Position numbers and translations under genes: made by a program. From UHGV virus genome UHGV-0193111: a stretch of DNA of 8,441 nucleotides; one strand, given 5' to 3'. This DNA is from a virus. Shown in pieces: positions 1,768-8,441 of the stretch; within the stretch, counting starts at the first letter, position 1, and the number at the start of each line of letters is the position of its first letter. The notes beneath the pieces are model-generated. The model saw nothing but the letters and a program-made list of their open reading frames with translations. It searched no databases and had not been told where the DNA came from.

Positions 1768-1920
1768 CCCGTTACGGGGCGGCGACCTCGCGGTTTTTCG
1801 CTATTTATGAGCTTTTTCATGGGGGGGTGGTGGTTTTGTTGCTTGCTCTATCTCCATGAATAAAAAGGGAAAGATAACACCAACACACCAACCTGAAACC
1901 TTGACCAAGTTGGGATATTG
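1768..1920 (+). other. cos site 1: lambda-type cosN (cohesive-end sequence GGGCGGCGACCT at 1777-1788) plus a diverged cosB-like leader with tandem ACACCAAC repeat (1877-1892), directly upstream of terS
   Basis: 1768-1812 cccgttacggggcggcgacctcgcggtttttcgctatttatga is near-identical to the phage lambda left end and cosN junction as I recall it (GGGCGGCGACCTCGCGGGTTTTCGCTATTTATGA). Same position and orientation relative to the Nu1-like gene as in lambda. Confidence 0.8.
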
Positions 1921-2463
1921 ATGAAATCGCACCTGATGAACAAAAAAACCATGGCGCAAAGCTGCCGGGTAAGTGCTACAGCATTCGACAAGTGGGGAGT
2001 GACTCCCGTTGAACGTAAAGGCCGTGAGGCGTTTTATGATGTTGCCAGCGTGATAGACAATAGGGTTAACAATGCAATTAGCCAGCTTACAAACGACAAA
2101 GGCGAGATTGATGATGATGAACTCTTACGAGTCAGGATCAGATTACTGACAGCACAGGCGGAGGCGCAGGAACTTAAAAACGAGCGCGATCGCGGTGACG
2201 TGATTGATACAGAGTTTTGCATGTACGCGCTTTCAAAACTGGCGAGTCAGATTTCATCAATCATGGACAGCCTCCCGCTTACTATGCAAAGGAGCTTCCC
2301 ACACATTACCCCCGCTATGCTGGATGGGCTTAAAAGGGAAGTGGTTAAAGCCTGTAATGCCAGTGCCAGAGTTGCCGACAACCTCCCACAGATACTGGCT
2401 GATTACCTGAACGAAACAACCGGAAACGTACCGGAAAAGTTGCTACAGAAGAAAGGCGAGTAA
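1921..2463 (+). CDS. terS: Terminase small subunit, lambda Nu1-like
   Basis: Product aligns along most of its length with lambda Nu1 as I recall it (YDVASVI vs YDSAAVI; RLLTAQAEAQELKNERD vs RLTRAQADAQELKNARD; FCMYALSKLASQISSIMDSLPLTMQRSFP vs FCTFVLSRIAGEIASILDGLPLSVQRRFP; LKREVVKACN vs LKRDIIKAMN). ORF track starts at TTG 1918. First ATG is 1921; ATG 1936 (MNKK...) matches the Nu1 N-terminus MEVNKK best. Weak RBS for either. Confidence 0.85.
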   Translation: MKSHLMNKKTMAQSCRVSATAFDKWGVTPVERKGREAFYDVASVIDNRVNNAISQLTNDKGEIDDDELLRVRIRLLTAQAEAQELKNERDRGDVIDTEFCMYALSKLASQISSIMDSLPLTMQRSFPHITPAMLDGLKREVVKACNASARVADNLPQILADYLNETTGNVPEKLLQKKGE

Positions 2464-2716: not shown

Positions 2717-3130
2717 TCAGATGGTTTTCAGTATGCGATCGATGTCGCCGTCATCGCCCTGGTTTCTGCCATCGTATGCCATGCCAGCTGATACGGCTTG
2801 CGGGCTGTGCATGTCCATAAAGTTTTCAAAGGCTGCGGTAAGCTCTGGTGCAACCTTTGGGCGCTCCTGCTCTATGGTCATGTTCAGGATTTCACGAGCA
2901 TTATCGACGCTAATACATGGCACGTTTGCCATTGCACGTAACAGCGGCTGATAGTCTTTATGCTCATGAAGCGCCATAATCGCATCAGCGCGCGGCTTGT
3001 CCTGCTCTTCCAGTTTGTTGAGTTGATATACGGCCTCGTAGGTTGATAAACCTCTGTCAGCCATTGCCCGCGCTTCTTCTTTAAATTTACTCGCCAGCGG
3101 TAGCGCCATGATGCTTTCATTCGTTGCCAT
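2717..3130 (-). CDS. Hypothetical protein, 137 aa, last gene of the capsid operon
   Basis: ORF with ATG at 3130 preceded by AGGGGGAA RBS, 12 bp after the decoration-protein stop; followed by a terminator. No family recognised; not obviously lambda FI or FII. Confidence 0.65.
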   Translation of the reverse strand: MATNESIMALPLASKFKEEARAMADRGLSTYEAVYQLNKLEEQDKPRADAIMALHEHKDYQPLLRAMANVPCISVDNAREILNMTIEQERPKVAPELTAAFENFMDMHSPQAVSAGMAYDGRNQGDDGDIDRILKTI

Positions 3131-3142
3131 CGTTCCCCCTGC

Positions 3143-3478
3143 TTATCGGGCCAGCGGCTGAACGGATACGCCGGAACCCGCAAAGGCGGCGCATTTTTTC
3201 GCATCGGTGTCGACGCTCTCAGGCCAGTTAACGGCGGCAATATTGAATATCCCCGTCTTGTAACACTGTGCTGATTTCTGCTTTGACGTGTCCACAGGAT
3301 ACGAAGTCAGATAAACAGCCTTGCCAGATTCCTGACCATCCCACGGCTTAAACTCGCCATTGTCCGCCAGCATCAGCGGGGTAAATTCCTGAATAACGCC
3401 AGCATCAGCGGCAAAATGTACCAGCGTCGTTGATACCTGCTGACTGCCTGCAAATAACTCAATGTATGGAGTGTTCAT
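3143..3478 (-). CDS. Head decoration protein, lambda gpD-like
   Basis: Product shares blocks with lambda gpD as I recall it (TPLML, WDG, YK-G-F, WPE, KK-AFAG, S-S-V) and has similar length (111 aa from ATG 3478; ORF track uses GTG 3487, 114 aa). Stop of the capsid gene lies 2 nt upstream of the GTG. Confidence 0.8.
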   Translation of the reverse strand: MNTPYIELFAGSQQVSTTLVHFAADAGVIQEFTPLMLADNGEFKPWDGQESGKAVYLTSYPVDTSKQKSAQCYKTGIFNIAAVNWPESVDTDAKKCAAFAGSGVSVQPLAR

Positions 3479-3489
3479 AGAATCCACCG

Positions 3490-4545
3490 TTAACCAATTT
3501 TGACGGTAACAAATTTGCGAATATCTGCCGGAACAGGCTGCGGTGCGCTGTGTGTCTGCACGTACTCAATCGCCGGATCGCCGTCTTCAATCCAGTTTTT
3601 CGGGTAAAACATGTTTTGCGTTGCGCCCGTTCTTACCGCTTCCTGTTCCATAATCGCACCATAGGCCACCAGCCCTTTATTGTTGGTGTTGCCCAGGACC
3701 AGCAAATCAGGCTCAAGGAAATATTTTTCTGTGCCGTCGCTGTCAGTGTATTTGCCGGAATAGACGATAAGGGCCAGATCACCAAGATAGCCTTTAAAGC
3801 TCACCACTTCTCCCAGGTTTTTACATGCCAGCTCTGCGGCGGATTCTGAACCACGGGAGAGATCGTACAGTTCACGGAATTTTTTAAAGCTGCGTAACAT
3901 GCGCCATACATCAACGCCCATAATCATGACGTTTGCGGGGCAACCTGCCTGATCTGCGTATAGCTCAATGTCATAGATTGGGTCGTGTATGTCTTTGTCC
4001 TGCTCTGACCATTTTTTACCGTCGGCCTGCTCTATGATGTTTTTTTCCGGTATCTTCCAGTCGATTTCATAGCGTTCTATGCCTTCGCCCTCAATGATGT
4101 TTTTTCCGGTCGTTATCGCATTCACCGCCATCCATTCCACGCGCGCTTTAATGGCGTTTATCTGGCGGCGCATGTTGCCAGTAATCAGGCGCATACGGCG
4201 GTAGGTAGGGTCGTTAAGCTGTGCCGGATCTTCTCCAGCCATGCGCATTATTGTTTTTAATGGATCGATTTCGTGTTTTGGCTTCATGTAGCCAGGGCGA
4301 ATAATGCTGGTTTCGTACCCTTTATCGCGCTGAACCTGGCTACCAACCATAGGCGAACAAAACGCCGACATAGTGACTTCTTCAATATCCAGGTTATCTA
4401 ACATGATGTCCTGTGTGTTGAATGTCGCCACGTTCGGGAAAAACAGCGCGGTAAACAGCGGACTGAATTTAAATTCCGCAATATCCTCGCGATTCAGGTA
4501 CGCGAAAAGCTGGTTAGTGTTAAGTGCCATTGCTTTGACTGCCAT
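3490..4545 (-). CDS. Major capsid protein, lambda gpE family
   Basis: 351-aa product shares many conserved blocks with lambda gpE as I recall it (FKF-PLF; PGY-KPKHE; DP-YRR-R; WS-RDK--DP-YDIE-YA; RSFK; GYLGD-A-VYSG-Y; LGNT--GL--YG-I; YPKNW--GDPA). ATG at 4545-4543 with GGGGGTGA RBS; start overlaps the stop of the upstream ORF (TAATG). Confidence 0.9.
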   Translation of the reverse strand: MAVKAMALNTNQLFAYLNREDIAEFKFSPLFTALFFPNVATFNTQDIMLDNLDIEEVTMSAFCSPMVGSQVQRDKGYETSIIRPGYMKPKHEIDPLKTIMRMAGEDPAQLNDPTYRRMRLITGNMRRQINAIKARVEWMAVNAITTGKNIIEGEGIERYEIDWKIPEKNIIEQADGKKWSEQDKDIHDPIYDIELYADQAGCPANVMIMGVDVWRMLRSFKKFRELYDLSRGSESAAELACKNLGEVVSFKGYLGDLALIVYSGKYTDSDGTEKYFLEPDLLVLGNTNNKGLVAYGAIMEQEAVRTGATQNMFYPKNWIEDGDPAIEYVQTHSAPQPVPADIRKFVTVKIG

Positions 4546-4751
4546 TATTCACCCCCATAATTTTTATGCATCCCAAGCGCCGCAAGTAAATAAGAGCGTA
4601 CAAGTGAACCTATCGACGGCTCCGGCGTCATCAGCGGATCCAGTCCAGCCGCCACGCCAGCCTCATAGTTTTTTTTGTGGCGCTGCTTGAGCACCTCCAC
4701 GATTTCGGGGCTTATGTACACCGAAACACCGCCTTTTTTCTCTTCTGCCAT
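4545..4751 (-). CDS. Hypothetical small protein, 68 aa, translationally coupled to the major capsid gene
   Basis: ATG at 4751 with AGAGGA RBS; stop overlaps the capsid gene start. First gene of the operon downstream of a palindromic promoter region. No family recognised (does not resemble lambda gpW despite equal length). Confidence 0.6.
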   Translation of the reverse strand: MAEEKKGGVSVYISPEIVEVLKQRHKKNYEAGVAAGLDPLMTPEPSIGSLVRSYLLAALGMHKNYGGE

Positions 4752-4779
4752 AGTCAGAAATTCCTCTTTGACTTAAAAA

Positions 4780-4818
4780 ATCACAACTGGATGTTCATCC
4801 AGTTATGATTATAATCAT
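4780..4818 (-). promoter_or_regulatory. Candidate promoter/operator of the capsid operon: inverted repeat AACTGGATG-n2-CATCCAGTT (4780-4799) and 14-bp perfect palindrome ATGATTATAATCAT (4805-4818) containing a consensus TATAAT
   Basis: Read directly from the sequence, 30-70 bp upstream of the 68-aa ORF start. No convincing -35 found, so promoter assignment is tentative. Confidence 0.4.
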
Positions 4819-4912
4819 GATTGCATTTTGCGCAATAAAATTGAGTTGTGTTGCAAATTATGAAATGATTTACAGCAACAGTAGTCACCATGCTGTTAAC
4901 CTCGTAAGCAAA

Positions 4913-4952
4913 AGCCCGATAAGCTTCCTCCTGTACTTATCGGGCTTTTTTT
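4913..4952 (+). terminator. Strong hairpin terminator (11-bp perfect stem AGCCCGATAAG/CTTATCGGGCT, then T7 on the plus strand); may also act on minus-strand transcripts (U4 on that side)
   Basis: Read directly from the sequence. No annotated plus-strand gene ends here, so it may insulate the two operons or terminate a small plus-strand RNA. Confidence 0.5.
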
Positions 4953-4958
4953 GGGTAC

Positions 4959-4980
4959 AAAAAGCCGGATTTTCTCCGGC
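4959..4980 (-). terminator. Rho-independent terminator after ssb (stem GCCGGA/TCCGGC, loop TTTTC, U5 on minus-strand transcript)
   Basis: Hairpin 4964-4980 with A5 at 4959-4963 on the plus strand, 9 bp downstream of the ssb stop; near-identical to the terminator at 2687-2710. Confidence 0.55.
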
Positions 4981-4988
4981 CTGTGCGT

Positions 4989-5399
4989 TCAGAACGGAAT
5001 ATCATCACCGTAGGGGTCATCGTCTCCCGCTGGTGGCTGATTACCCTGTGCGCCTGTGGTTTTGCGTCTGTTCCCGCCAGGACGTGCCGCACGGGCACTG
5101 ATTACGCTGTCTGCAATAACCTGATAACCCTGCCGCGTTTCCCCGTTCTGTCCGGTCCACTGGCTTATCTGCATCACGCCAGATATGCTGGCAACGTCGC
5201 CTTTTTGATGTTTAGCCAGGAAGTCGGCCTGCTTACCAAATGCCATCACCGATAGCCATAACGTAGCCGTTCCGTCATCTGCCTGGCTGCACGGAAGGGG
5301 GACCGCCATACGCGCCAGCGTCATCGGTGTGCCCTTGCTGGTCTGTTTTACCTGCGGGTCGTCCACCAGCCGCCCGTAAGCTGCTATCTGTGCTGTCAT
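4989..5399 (-). CDS. ssb: Single-stranded DNA-binding protein
   Basis: 136-aa product with an SSB-like OB-fold core (FGK...KGD...ISG...W...GE-R) and a Gly/Pro-rich linker ending in the acidic tail DDDPYGDDIPF, the hallmark SSB C-terminal motif. Start ATG overlaps the upstream ORF stop (ATGA). Confidence 0.85.
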   Translation of the reverse strand: MTAQIAAYGRLVDDPQVKQTSKGTPMTLARMAVPLPCSQADDGTATLWLSVMAFGKQADFLAKHQKGDVASISGVMQISQWTGQNGETRQGYQVIADSVISARAARPGGNRRKTTGAQGNQPPAGDDDPYGDDIPF

Positions 5400-5647
5400 G
5401 CTGTCTGCTCTCCGGTTTTAACGTTGATGGTTGTTACCTGTTCCGCTTCGGCAATCTCCCGCTCTGTCAGCGTGGCAAAATTTGCCGCCGCCGTGGTCAT
5501 GAATGCGCTTATCAGGTCGGGATGTTCCTTCGCGTATCCTTCCCGCGTGTGGCGGTCTATCGTTCTGATTGCCACCTTTAAGGTGTGCTCAGTCATGTCT
5601 AACGCTTTATATTTTGGCTCTGTTCTGTCTCTGCGTGTTCTGGTCAT
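5396..5647 (-). CDS. Hypothetical protein, 83 aa, translationally coupled to ssb
   Basis: ATG at 5647 with GAGGTGG RBS (ORF track starts 4 codons earlier at TTG 5659); stop overlaps the ssb start. No family recognised. Confidence 0.55.
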   Translation of the reverse strand: MTRTRRDRTEPKYKALDMTEHTLKVAIRTIDRHTREGYAKEHPDLISAFMTTAAANFATLTEREIAEAEQVTTINVKTGEQTA

Positions 5648-5660
5648 TTGCCACCTCAAT

Positions 5661-5999
5661 TTATATATATATATAGAAACATGTGCGGGTTATGCGGGTT
5701 ATTGGGTTATCTTAGCGTGCTAACCATTTTTTATCCTTTTATATCAGTATTTTGCAAAACACCCTGTTTATTATTTGCTCACCACGTAACCCGCAAAACG
5801 CTCAAAATAACCCGCAAACGGGGTTTTTTCTGCGGGTTACGCATGACTGTCCGGTGTTACTTCAGTTATTCGCCTGCGGGTTATAATCGTGCTTTTGCGG
5901 GTTATAAATGCCCTTTTGCGGGTTACGTGCGGGTTATTGGTTTCCTTTATATTCATGCACTTAATACACTTATACACAGGATAACCCGCATAACCCGCA
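5661..5999. repeat. Putative replication origin: iteron array of 11 perfect TGCGGGTTA 9-mers (plus strand at 5684, 5693, 5831, 5875, 5896, 5917, 5928; inverted at 5787, 5808, 5982, 5991) with AT-rich tracts including (TA)n at 5661-5676
   Basis: Repeats read directly from the sequence; several pairs spaced 21 bp (5787/5808; 5875/5896/5917), tandem pairs at both edges in opposite orientation. Located immediately downstream of the primase/helicase gene, as is typical for Pri-Rep plus ori modules of phage-inducible islands. Confidence 0.75.
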
Positions 6000-6021
6000 A
6001 TTTTTTTCCTCACACAGGGGA

Positions 6022-8145
6022 TTAATCTTCATCATCAGGCTGGAACATCAGCACGTAAAAAACATGCTGCTTACCCCCAATCTTGCCCAGCGCCTTTTTT
6101 TTGTATCGGCGATCGCTTCCCTTCTCCAGCATTCCGGCAGCATCCAGGGCACGCGCAAAATGCGCCGGATTAAATCCCTTCGCTATCTCACTATCAAACA
6201 CGTGCGGGAACGTGTAATAGCGCATCTCGTCATCTTCGTTGCGAATGCTCCCTTTTCTGTATCCGGCAAGCTCTTTAATCGGTAAATCACGCTCATCTGT
6301 ATTGGGGTACGGAAGGTAGCGGCTAAACCCAAACGACGACAAAAACGCCTCAGCCTGTTCAACCATCTGTTTAAATTCCCTGTTACCCGTGCCGAACTCC
6401 TTCACCCAGGCATTAAAGTTATGCTGTATCGCGTCGCAGCATTCCTGCACGACCCAGCCAGTTACATGACCGGAAAGCACAAGCGCGGCCTCCAGTATGG
6501 CGAAACGTTCACCCACGCGGTGGACCTGCTCGCCGTAACTCTCCGGTATCAGGTTGCGCCACCGTTCGCGGCATTCCCTTACCGTGTCCTTTGCCTCCTG
6601 CTGGTGGCCTGCCAGCCATTTAACCCACTCACGACCCGCCGCCCCGTGATTTGCTGTCCAGGCATCCTTTAACGCGTCAGCATGTTCCTTACCGTTGCTG
6701 TATTCGTGAAATTTCGTGGCTTTTTCCATCGGAACGTTAAGCAGTCGGACAAGCTGCCCCGCCTTAACTTTTATCCCCTCACTTTTGAGGAATGTCTCAA
6801 CGTCCATTTCTCCGGTGCTGATTGCCACCGTTCGCCAGTGTTTGATCTCCCTGTTGCCGCCATCCTTCGCCCCCTGCAATTTCCCTGAACCGTTAAACAG
6901 CGTATAAGCAGACGTTGACACTTCCCGCGCATTTCCGGCCTGGCCTATCTCATCCAGTGGTAAAAGCCCGTCATTATGGGCCTCGGCCTCATTGGCAATA
7001 CCTAACGCCGTGCCGTACCAGGTCAGCCGCTGCGCGTCCGGCTCTCCCCATAAACTTGATGCGATGTTCTGCGTGGTGGTCTTACCTGCCGATGACTGTT
7101 CGAAAAGATGCACCCCGAAGCCGTCAGCACCCACAAGGCCAATTAAAGGCGCTGCCAGTGACGTTGCCACACCCAGCATCATTGAGGCATTACCGCCAGC
7201 CAGCCGCGCCACGCTGTCGCGCCAGCCATCCGCCGTGCCAGCCACGGAATAACCGTTAATCGCGGCGCTTTTTCCGGTAAACAGGATCGGTTTTTCAGAT
7301 TCACCAATGATCGAACCGTCCGGCATGATGTACGCGCCAAAATGCCAGCCCGTTGTTGTGCTTAACTGCCATTCCTCATGGCTTCCGCTTAACTGCATCC
7401 AGTCCGCCAGGATTGCCCTGTATTTGCCGTTGGTTGTCACGTTCAGCCCGTGATCTTTAAGTAACCGCCAGCCGTCACGGTCGCCGATACCACCACACGG
7501 GATCGCCATTGTGATGACTTCATGGTTTGCGGTTTTTTTCCAGCGCATCACGCGGTAATGCTCTTTACCGATCGTCCCCGTTCCCAGTAGTTCAAGCGGA
7601 GAACATAACCACGTCTCAGGCCGGATAATTTCGCCTGACTGCTTATCCACTTTGGGCGTTACCCAGAAAACACCATCGGCGCGACTTTCAACGCGTGGCT
7701 TTAATTCGTCATCGCTATGACTTCCGGTATCTTTTTTCTTTACCGGAAGCTCAATAACCAGACCATCAGAAAGATTCTGCCGCTCACGGGCCAGATATTC
7801 GCGCCAGTTCTCCACCTTCTGAACGTGCATTCCATCAGGGTAAAAATTTGCATCCTGTACGCCTGCCGCCGCCAGCTTCTGACCAATCGCCTTGATCATT
7901 ACTGGCTCAAGATGTCCGGCCCTGAATATGCGTACTGATTTTCGGCCTTCCGGCACAATTTGCAGCTTATCCAGTTCGGCAAGTTGTTGCTCTCCAAGCC
8001 AGACAGGAGGCACGTTATCGCCAGCCAGTCGCCCGTCCTGTTCCTGCCACTGCTTCGCATGTGCCCACGCATCACTACCCGCAAAAATGATGACTTCCGT
8101 CATTTTGTCACGTGGCTGGTGTTTTAAATTTGGCGCTTTTTTCAT
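6022..8145 (-). CDS. Replication initiator of primase/helicase type (P-loop NTPase; Pri-Rep-like); exact family not resolved
   Basis: 707 aa from ATG 8145 with GGAGAG RBS (ORF track uses GTG 8160, 712 aa). Contains a Walker A-like SSAGKTT and a Walker B-like LLPLDE motif. Large size and position directly upstream of an iteron array. Start overlaps the stop of the upstream ORF (ATGA). Confidence 0.8.
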   Translation of the reverse strand: MKKAPNLKHQPRDKMTEVIIFAGSDAWAHAKQWQEQDGRLAGDNVPPVWLGEQQLAELDKLQIVPEGRKSVRIFRAGHLEPVMIKAIGQKLAAAGVQDANFYPDGMHVQKVENWREYLARERQNLSDGLVIELPVKKKDTGSHSDDELKPRVESRADGVFWVTPKVDKQSGEIIRPETWLCSPLELLGTGTIGKEHYRVMRWKKTANHEVITMAIPCGGIGDRDGWRLLKDHGLNVTTNGKYRAILADWMQLSGSHEEWQLSTTTGWHFGAYIMPDGSIIGESEKPILFTGKSAAINGYSVAGTADGWRDSVARLAGGNASMMLGVATSLAAPLIGLVGADGFGVHLFEQSSAGKTTTQNIASSLWGEPDAQRLTWYGTALGIANEAEAHNDGLLPLDEIGQAGNAREVSTSAYTLFNGSGKLQGAKDGGNREIKHWRTVAISTGEMDVETFLKSEGIKVKAGQLVRLLNVPMEKATKFHEYSNGKEHADALKDAWTANHGAAGREWVKWLAGHQQEAKDTVRECRERWRNLIPESYGEQVHRVGERFAILEAALVLSGHVTGWVVQECCDAIQHNFNAWVKEFGTGNREFKQMVEQAEAFLSSFGFSRYLPYPNTDERDLPIKELAGYRKGSIRNEDDEMRYYTFPHVFDSEIAKGFNPAHFARALDAAGMLEKGSDRRYKKKALGKIGGKQHVFYVLMFQPDDED

Positions 8146-8441
8146 TTCTGCTCTCTCCACGCGGCAATCATGTTTTTTAGTTCCTGTAGTTTTTTATCAA
8201 CATCCATACATGACACATGGTTATTTCTGGAAAGCGGGATTTCCCGCCTGAATCTGCTAATAAAGATCTCCACGTTCAGCGAACTAAGAAATGAATAGCC
8301 ATCACGGATAAAATACACACGGTCAAACATCAGTTCTTTTACCGTTACTCTGTTACCGTTCTTATCCAGATAAATAGCGCCGGGGATAATTTGGGGGTGT
8401 GCATAACCGCTGGCAGTCAAGCCAGATAAATATGTTCTCAT
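8142..8441 (-). CDS. Hypothetical protein, at least 99 aa; may continue beyond the window end
   Basis: Open frame runs to the window edge (an ATG happens to sit at 8441-8439); stop overlaps the primase start. No family recognised; not AlpA-like. Confidence 0.45.
   Translation of the reverse strand: MRTYLSGLTASGYAHPQIIPGAIYLDKNGNRVTVKELMFDRVYFIRDGYSFLSSLNVEIFISRFRREIPLSRNNHVSCMDVDKKLQELKNMIAAWREQK

Follow-up and report, generated by a model that had tools for sequence, protein, structure and literature searches.

The sequence considered here, UHGV virus genome UHGV-0193111, is 8,441 nucleotides (nt) in length (termed the window) and carries a phage-inducible chromosomal island (PICI) of the EcCICFT073 type, a phage satellite of Escherichia coli. 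Its capsid operon begins with an open reading frame (ORF) of 68 amino acids (aa), whose stop codon overlaps the capsid start codon by 1 base, and we are concerned with the control region immediately upstream of this ORF, which probably places the operon under repression by LexA, the SOS repressor of the host. All genes around this region are encoded on the minus strand. Two terminator hairpins end the neighbouring ssb transcription unit, and therefore the capsid operon needs its own promoter within positions 4752-4905. Homologues of the segment 4545-4990 are found in 597 of 5,426 complete E. coli genomes, including those of CFT073 and O157:H7, which corresponds to carriage of the module by about 1 in 9 genomes. 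The neighbourhoods of annotated relatives follow the order int - alpA - primase - ssb - capsid, as in the EcCICFT073 PICI family (PMC6092414).

A preliminary description of this DNA, made from the letters alone, had placed two adjacent palindromes upstream of the 68-aa/capsid operon. This location is confirmed, and both palindromes are real. The second was assigned correctly to 4805-4818, but the first, AACTGGATG-tt-CATCCAGTT, lies at 4785-4804 and not at 4780-4799, a displacement of 5 nt. The two elements are thus contiguous, with zero gap, and are located 34-67 nt upstream of the operon. Palindrome 2 is a perfect palindrome of 14 base pairs (bp), and because of its symmetry TATAAT is legible on both strands (4810-4815 on the plus strand and 4813..4808 on the minus strand). 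Palindrome 1 can be extended to arms of 15 nt (4779-4793 and 4796-4810) that are complementary at 14 of 15 positions. Chance expectations were estimated from 200 first-order Markov simulations of the window, which yield 0.51 perfect palindromes per window for arms of at least 7 nt with no spacer and 0.23 per window for arms of at least 9 nt with a spacer of 0-6 nt; neither element is therefore remarkable as a bare palindrome.

Judged by its sequence, palindrome 1 is a canonical E. coli LexA (SOS) box. The consensus for such boxes is TACTG(TA)5CAGTA, and the arrangement found here, AACTG-GATGTTCATC-CAGTT, carries the required CTG and CAG with their separation of 10 nt. For scoring we used a symmetrised LexA matrix compiled from 17 SOS boxes that were confirmed by exact match in MG1655 DNA (upstream of recA, lexA (2), sulA, umuD, uvrA/ssb, uvrB, recN (3), ruvA, dinG, yebG, ydjM (2), cho and dinD); an 18-site version adds the tisB/istR box, which a blind scan with the matrix recovered without its position being given. 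Palindrome 1 scores 21.9 bits with the 17-site matrix and 21.6 bits with the 18-site matrix. Known boxes span 13.3-26.8 bits in a leave-one-out calculation, and palindrome 1 ranks about 7th among them. The second-best site in the window reaches 7.4 bits, an exact tail calculation predicts 2.5e-4 hits of palindrome 1's score per window, and a scan of 139 kb of K-12 DNA revealed no non-SOS site above 13.1 bits. An HI-like index computed from the same sites by the Lewis formula gives 5.83 for palindrome 1, compared with 0.85-8.6 for the known boxes and a minimum of 12.5 for 20,000 random 20-mers.

Besides the identity of the motif, its position relative to promoter consensus elements and its conservation can be read directly from the sequences. 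On the minus strand, the arrangement TTGCGC-16-TATAAT matches the sigma-70 consensus at 9 of 12 positions, with a perfect -10 element, and is the predicted promoter of the operon, with transcription predicted to start near 4801. The LexA box abuts this -10 element and covers predicted positions -3..+17. A third dyad overlies the predicted -35 element, such that three dyads tile the predicted promoter gap-free, at -35..-19, -17..-4 and -3..+17. The -10 element is held as TATAAT or TAAAAT in every relative.

Conservation of the box was examined in 87 loci, made up of 80 IMG/VR contigs, the RM10466 and CFT073 islands, a Salmonella locus, two E. coli loci whose capsid is of a 63%-identity type, an Edwardsiella locus and the window itself. 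In 83 of the 87 the box is kept, with scores of 14.5-22.9 bits (18.9 bits in Salmonella) and an unchanged spacing to the start codon; O157:H7 also carries it, with 18.6 bits. CTGGAT...AT(C/A)CAG is invariant, and variation lies in the two flanking positions at either end. In the core only two substitutions were observed, G9A and C15A; both bring the box nearer to the consensus, raise its score (from 21.6 to 22.6 and 22.9 bits) and break the pairing of the dyad. Changes that break the symmetry yet raise the LexA score are expected of a protein site and not of a hairpin, and by this comparison of homologues the positions that LexA would contact are under purifying selection. In two loci (L044 and L122) the central four bases of the box are inverted (GTTC versus GAAC), the kind of change that would be expected from template switching within a palindrome.

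The box is absent from the 63%-identity E. coli subfamily, in which the -10 element is TAAAAT, and from Edwardsiella. A variant fused to an HK97-type capsid also lacks it, as do Kluyvera-, Cedecea- and Kosakonia-type islands without the 68-aa gene. Because some relatives lack the box, the predicted LexA control is, on the evidence of these alignments, a trait of the main E. coli and Salmonella lineage rather than inherent in the promoter itself. The fusion variant (L168, from E. coli JNEC-KY176) joins the upstream half of the promoter, including TATAAT, to an HK97-family capsid gene and a prohead protease gene, and points to an exchange of modules at a breakpoint near -22. A contig scan based on a capsid alignment returned 16 loci, namely 4 PICI-like loci without the 68-aa gene and 12 loci at 39-44% capsid identity; a contig scan with a single capsid protein gave no match. 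In those of the 12 loci whose upstream DNA was inspected, the capsid gene directly follows another coding region that ends in a terminator, and these loci were therefore taken as ordinary prophages. Islands from Kluyvera, Cedecea, Superficieibacter and Kosakonia (L083, L084, L085 and L096) have neither the 68-aa gene nor the TATAAT palindrome nor the LexA box, and carry instead 2-3 direct TTGC-N6-TTGC repeats approximately 120-160 nt upstream of the capsid start, the pattern of the lambda CII binding site.

A second LexA-like box lies outside the window. When whole contigs were scanned, matches of at least 12 bits fell almost all at two places, the capsid promoter and the intergenic region that separates int from alpA. 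The box at the latter site, with 13.5-25.6 bits, is present in 27 IMG/VR contigs as well as in the RM10466 and CFT073 islands (for example at 15746-15765 in L001, 15362-15381 in L002, 1241-1260 in L136 and 2317-2336 in L156). When their integrases are compared with that of RM10466, the contigs that carry it divide into at least three groups (83-95%, 47% and ~25% identity), and its sequence differs between these groups. As a sequence match, the int-alpA box lends independent support to the use of LexA by these islands.

We therefore estimate at roughly three in four the probability that positions 4779-4836 constitute a LexA-repressed control region of the capsid operon that is derepressed by the SOS response in step with the helper phage. 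In undamaged cells, a dimer of host LexA would lie over the start site and prevent transcription. Upon DNA damage, RecA* would bring about LexA cleavage, and the same SOS signal that induces lambdoid helper prophages would derepress the satellite capsid genes in step with them. With such an operator, antibiotics and other DNA-damaging stresses would turn on the capsid genes directly, with no helper signal awaited. As the regulator would be the chromosomal LexA of the host, no regulator gene is expected on the island, which accounts for the remark in the preliminary description that none is identified in the window. The same description had proposed a repressed capsid operon with an operator lying over its promoter. 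The overlap of the dyads with the predicted promoter bears this out, but the placement of the operator on the TATAAT-centred palindrome is not well supported; the better-supported operator is palindrome 1. LexA control is thus a well-supported prediction and not a new mechanism. Our search of the literature on EcCICFT073-type and Gram-negative PICIs yielded no report of LexA control of the capsid module, no description of how its capsid genes are controlled, and no data on SOS-dependent expression.

Several observations weigh against LexA control of the capsid operon. The promoter start, LexA binding and SOS expression are each predictions from sequence. The 16-nt-spaced promoter has a -35 element that matches consensus at only 3 of 6 positions, which is why a stricter promoter scan passed over TTGCGC, and a hexamer pair with an equal score exists on the plus strand. 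Some related islands keep the promoter without the box, and LexA control is therefore not essential to the module. Deletion of the capsid or decoration gene of EcCICFT073 produces no phenotype (PMC6092414). Finally, alpA reporters from EcCICFT073 and EcCIMP1 are not induced by mitomycin C without helper (PMC6092414; PMC11773190), from which it follows that a good LexA-like box is no guarantee of SOS induction. At alpA, release of LexA may be necessary but insufficient, or the box may serve another promoter.

Table 1. Features of the capsid operon, its control region and the neighbouring island genes in the window.
Feature	Position	Strand	Remarks
LexA (SOS) box AACTGGATGTTCATCCAGTT	4785..4804		CTG-N10-CAG dyad; predicted -3..+17
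Palindrome 2 ATGATTATAATCAT	4805..4818		-17..-4; holds -10, ATGATT/AATCAT flanks
Third dyad ATTGCGCAAAATGCAAT (ATTGCR-N5-TGCAAT)	4820..4836		Over -35, positions -35..-19
-10 hexamer TATAAT, predicted	4808..4813	-	6/6 consensus, 16-nt spacer to TTGCGC
-35 hexamer TTGCGC, predicted	4830..4835	-	3/6 consensus; TTGCAC or TTGCAT in relatives
Extended inverted repeat	4779..4810	-	As RNA, 14-pair stem then U6 (A-run 4775-4780 on plus strand)
Ribosome-binding site AGAGGAA (includes GAGGA)	4761..4767	-	9 nt 5' of the 68-aa gene ATG; kept in all relatives
Conserved intergenic block (leader, promoter and ~70 nt upstream)	4752..4870	-	Similarity between island variants ends beyond
68-aa ORF, operon gene 1, phrog_3255	4545..4751	-	Start codon 4751..4749
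Major capsid protein, lambda gpE type	3490..4545	-	Pfam Phage_cap_E, E = 3.5e-50
Head decoration protein, lambda gpD type	3143..3487	-	Pfam HDPD, E = 5.5e-18
137-aa scaffold-like protein	2717..3130	-	phrog_53, E = 1.1e-10; resembles head maturation protease C-terminus
Two terminator hairpins	4910-4949 and ~4959-4984		Close ssb transcription unit, insulate capsid promoter
SSB gene	4989-5399	-	Upstream of capsid operon
Iteron-rich region, probable origin (ori)	5681-6001		Upstream of capsid operon
DUF927 primase	6022-8160	-	Upstream of capsid operon

The extent of the conserved intergenic block (Table 1) is reflected in the homology search, where, among the matches listed, most span only query positions 1-119, equivalent to 4752-4870. 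Neither an Rfam scan of the whole window, with E values up to 1, nor a tRNA search found a match. Elsewhere on the island, the iteron TGCGGGTTA occurs in at least 12 copies, in both orientations, at 5662-6001 around a run of AT-rich DNA with (TA)7 at 5662-5675, and this region, directly 3' of the primase gene, is probably the island replication origin. A gene resembling the Nu1-type small terminase subunit (1918-2463, plus strand) is encoded on the opposite strand and runs towards the capsid operon, whereas its RM10466 counterpart has the same orientation as the operon. The longest palindrome of the window is a perfect one of 22 bp, CGAGTTGCAGATCTGCAACTCG, at 1362-1383, which recurs in the RM10466 island (L001, ~5624-5645). 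A 106-aa ORF at 283-603 on the minus strand is presumably ClpS; on this assumption the window island appears to adjoin clpS, whereas the RM10466 island lies inside tqsA and that of CFT073 between phoQ and roxA.

Palindrome 2 calls for an explanation separate from that of the LexA box. The possibility that its symmetry is incidental, reflecting a perfect and near-palindromic -10 element in an AT-rich conserved promoter that is contacted by RNA polymerase only, has in our estimate not quite an even chance. A perfect 14-mer is, as the simulations show, expected 0.5 times per window, and what relatives conserve is the sequence rather than the symmetry. Within the main family the 12-bp core TGATTATAATCA does not vary, and neither does most of the promoter; the outer pair occurs as A..T, C..G, A..G and C..T. 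Symmetric outer pairs are found in 15 of 24 haplotypes, against ~10.5 expected under independence, but these haplotypes are mutually related and provide no convincing signal of covariation at the outer pair. The corresponding sequence is ATGCTTATAATCAT in Salmonella and ATGATTAAAATCAT in the 63% subfamily (ATGATT-AA-AATCAT), and Edwardsiella carries an insertion. Given the variation of the outer pair and the mismatches and indel of these relatives, the symmetry itself is not clearly selected. The HK97-type fusion variant, moreover, has TATAAT with non-symmetric flanks. Against coincidence stands the requirement for five more complementary pairs beyond TATAAT, for which we calculate a chance probability of ~1e-3, together with the recurrence of the half-site hexamer close by and the conservation of the flanks across subfamilies, which exceeds that of the adjoining coding sequence.

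Alternatively, a second, dedicated repressor could act besides LexA on the TATAAT palindrome and perhaps on the -35 dyad, the candidate being the 68-aa product as a ribbon-helix-helix autorepressor, an explanation that we regard as possible but doubtful. ATGATT/AATCAT half-sites are located at 4805, 4813, 4817 and 4865, with a degenerate copy at 4779; these 4 copies within 4805-4870 are among 10 in the window. Together with the three contiguous dyads that cover -35..+17 gap-free, a case for such a repressor is made by the persistence of the half-sites (as ATGATT-N2-AATCAT) and of the -35 dyad in subfamilies that are without the LexA box and whose proteins are only 63-68% identical. In its common haplotype, TGCACAAAATGCAATC, the -35 dyad shares 14 of 16 positions with the operator of CopG, and the haplotype of the window shares 13; the operator sequence is that of the PDB 1ea4 DNA as quoted in PMC2504314, and the comparison with CopG is post hoc. 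Variants without the 68-aa gene are also without these dyad arms, but physical linkage explains this co-occurrence equally well. The failure of relatives to keep the symmetry of the -10 palindrome, with all outer-pair combinations present and mismatches in Salmonella and the 63% subfamily, also argues against a second repressor.

The 68-aa product is the only candidate in the window for a DNA-binding protein cognate to the -10 dyad, for which none was identified. Its N-terminus, GGVSVYISPEIVEVLKQ, resembles the strand and first helix of ribbon-helix-helix repressors, and 3 of 13 family members give sub-threshold Pfam matches to BrnA_antitoxin and RHH_1. An hhalign comparison of the N-terminal segment with the strand and helix of CopG assigns a probability of 0.9%, the AlphaFold model (pLDDT 70) has two helices after an unstructured N-terminus, and no protein of the window has significant similarity to CopG. 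The family is tiny and unconnected to known families, and 16 relatives are detectable in a set of 1.8 billion proteins. None of these ribbon-helix-helix hints is significant, and we treat them as a lead and not as a result. If the 68-aa protein were an autorepressor, there would be a regulator gene in the window after all.

A broader proposal, which we consider improbable, is that EcCICFT073-type PICIs are wired to LexA at both alpA and the capsid operon, with the capsid promoter built as a stack of three operators in which the 68-aa autorepressor would bind the -35 and -10 dyads and LexA the start. If true, this would revise the published account, in which these islands are induced independently of SOS, and the orphan 68-aa family would gain a function. 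The question raised is what role LexA-like boxes play beside alpA in islands that are reported to be SOS-independent.

The remaining alternatives fare less well than LexA control of the operon. Palindrome 1 could form a hairpin in minus-strand RNA and act as an intrinsic terminator or attenuator before the capsid operon. A terminator scan flags its 14-pair stem followed by TTTTAAGTCA, the predicted RNA fold has an energy of -22.9 kcal/mol (z -4.5), and some changes in the outer stem look compensatory (AATCAC...GTGATT; AATCAGGA...TCCTGATT). However, the 5' arm begins inside the -10 element, such that the predicted promoter cannot give rise to an RNA with the whole stem, and the inner stem that remains is 4 nt from the U-run. 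Approximately half of the haplotypes have an outer-stem mismatch. Each of the two core substitutions disrupts a stem pair and at the same time gives a better LexA score, relatives without any hairpin still have the T-run, and two good terminators already lie upstream. We largely reject this interpretation as very unlikely.

Slimmer still is the chance that a plus-strand promoter produces a small RNA of ~135 nt ending at the 4910-4955 terminator. The plus strand does carry two hexamer pairs that each match consensus at 9 of 12 positions (ATCACA-18-TATGAT and TGGATG-16-TATAAT), the terminator has a 7-T run on this strand, and the segment 4816-4960 folds with z -3.7. Conservation nevertheless ends at 4870, midway along the putative RNA, the first of the plus-strand promoters is destroyed in about half of the haplotypes, Rfam holds no match, and in CFT073 the perC gene is located on this side, and we reject the small RNA. 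Least probable of all is a Fur (iron) box in the TATAAT palindrome region, which we also reject, since the match of TATGATTATAATCATGATT (4804-4822) to the 19-bp consensus GATAATGATAATCATTATC, at 14 of 19 positions the best in the window, is of a quality expected ~0.5 times per window by a binomial estimate, falls to 12 of 19 in the common variants CTGATT / AATCAG, which lose two matching positions, and lacks a biological rationale.

LexA repression of the capsid operon would have several precedents. Like the SOS boxes of E. coli (for example those of ruvAB, CGCTGGATATCTATCCAGCA, uvrB and cho), palindrome 1 is a 20-bp CTG-N10-CAG dyad whose score and HI-like index fall within the range of known sites, and like them it is predicted to overlap the promoter and start region. 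The arms CTGGAT...ATCCAG are shared with the ruvAB and cho boxes. The box of the window differs in being a predicted LexA site that resides on a mobile satellite, over virion structural genes and not over repair genes. LexA boxes that overlie the -10/+1 region of strong promoters of mobile elements are known from colicin operons, integron integrases and the P1 promoter of phage GIL01. Colicin promoters have tandem boxes, whereas the capsid promoter has a single one and no known co-repressor. The operator of CopG at Pcr of pMV158 overlaps a -35 element, and the -35 dyad of the window shares with it TGCA-N5-TGCA at equal spacing; this likeness concerns the third dyad only and not palindromes 1 and 2.

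The closest functional parallel is operon I of the staphylococcal SaPIs, a packaging module that is LexA-controlled, so that its expression is tied to the SOS signal by which the helper is induced (PMC5052747; Ubeda et al. 2007 as cited there). In both cases a satellite packaging or capsid module is located downstream of the replication origin and has its own promoter, with LexA repression known in the SaPIs and predicted here. The layout of such a satellite module is present in the window, where the ori iterons (5681-6001) and an ssb unit closed by two terminators are followed by the promoter and the capsid operon. There is no sequence relationship between the two systems; the LexA motif of the window is of the Gram-negative type, and SaPI operon I encodes cpmAB, terS and pti, whereas the operon of the window encodes gpE- and gpD-like capsid and decoration proteins. 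Those parts of the literature on EcCICFT073-type islands that were accessible cite the SaPI LexA work without reporting LexA control of the capsid module. If the control proposed here is true, its regulatory logic would be convergent with that of the unrelated SaPIs.
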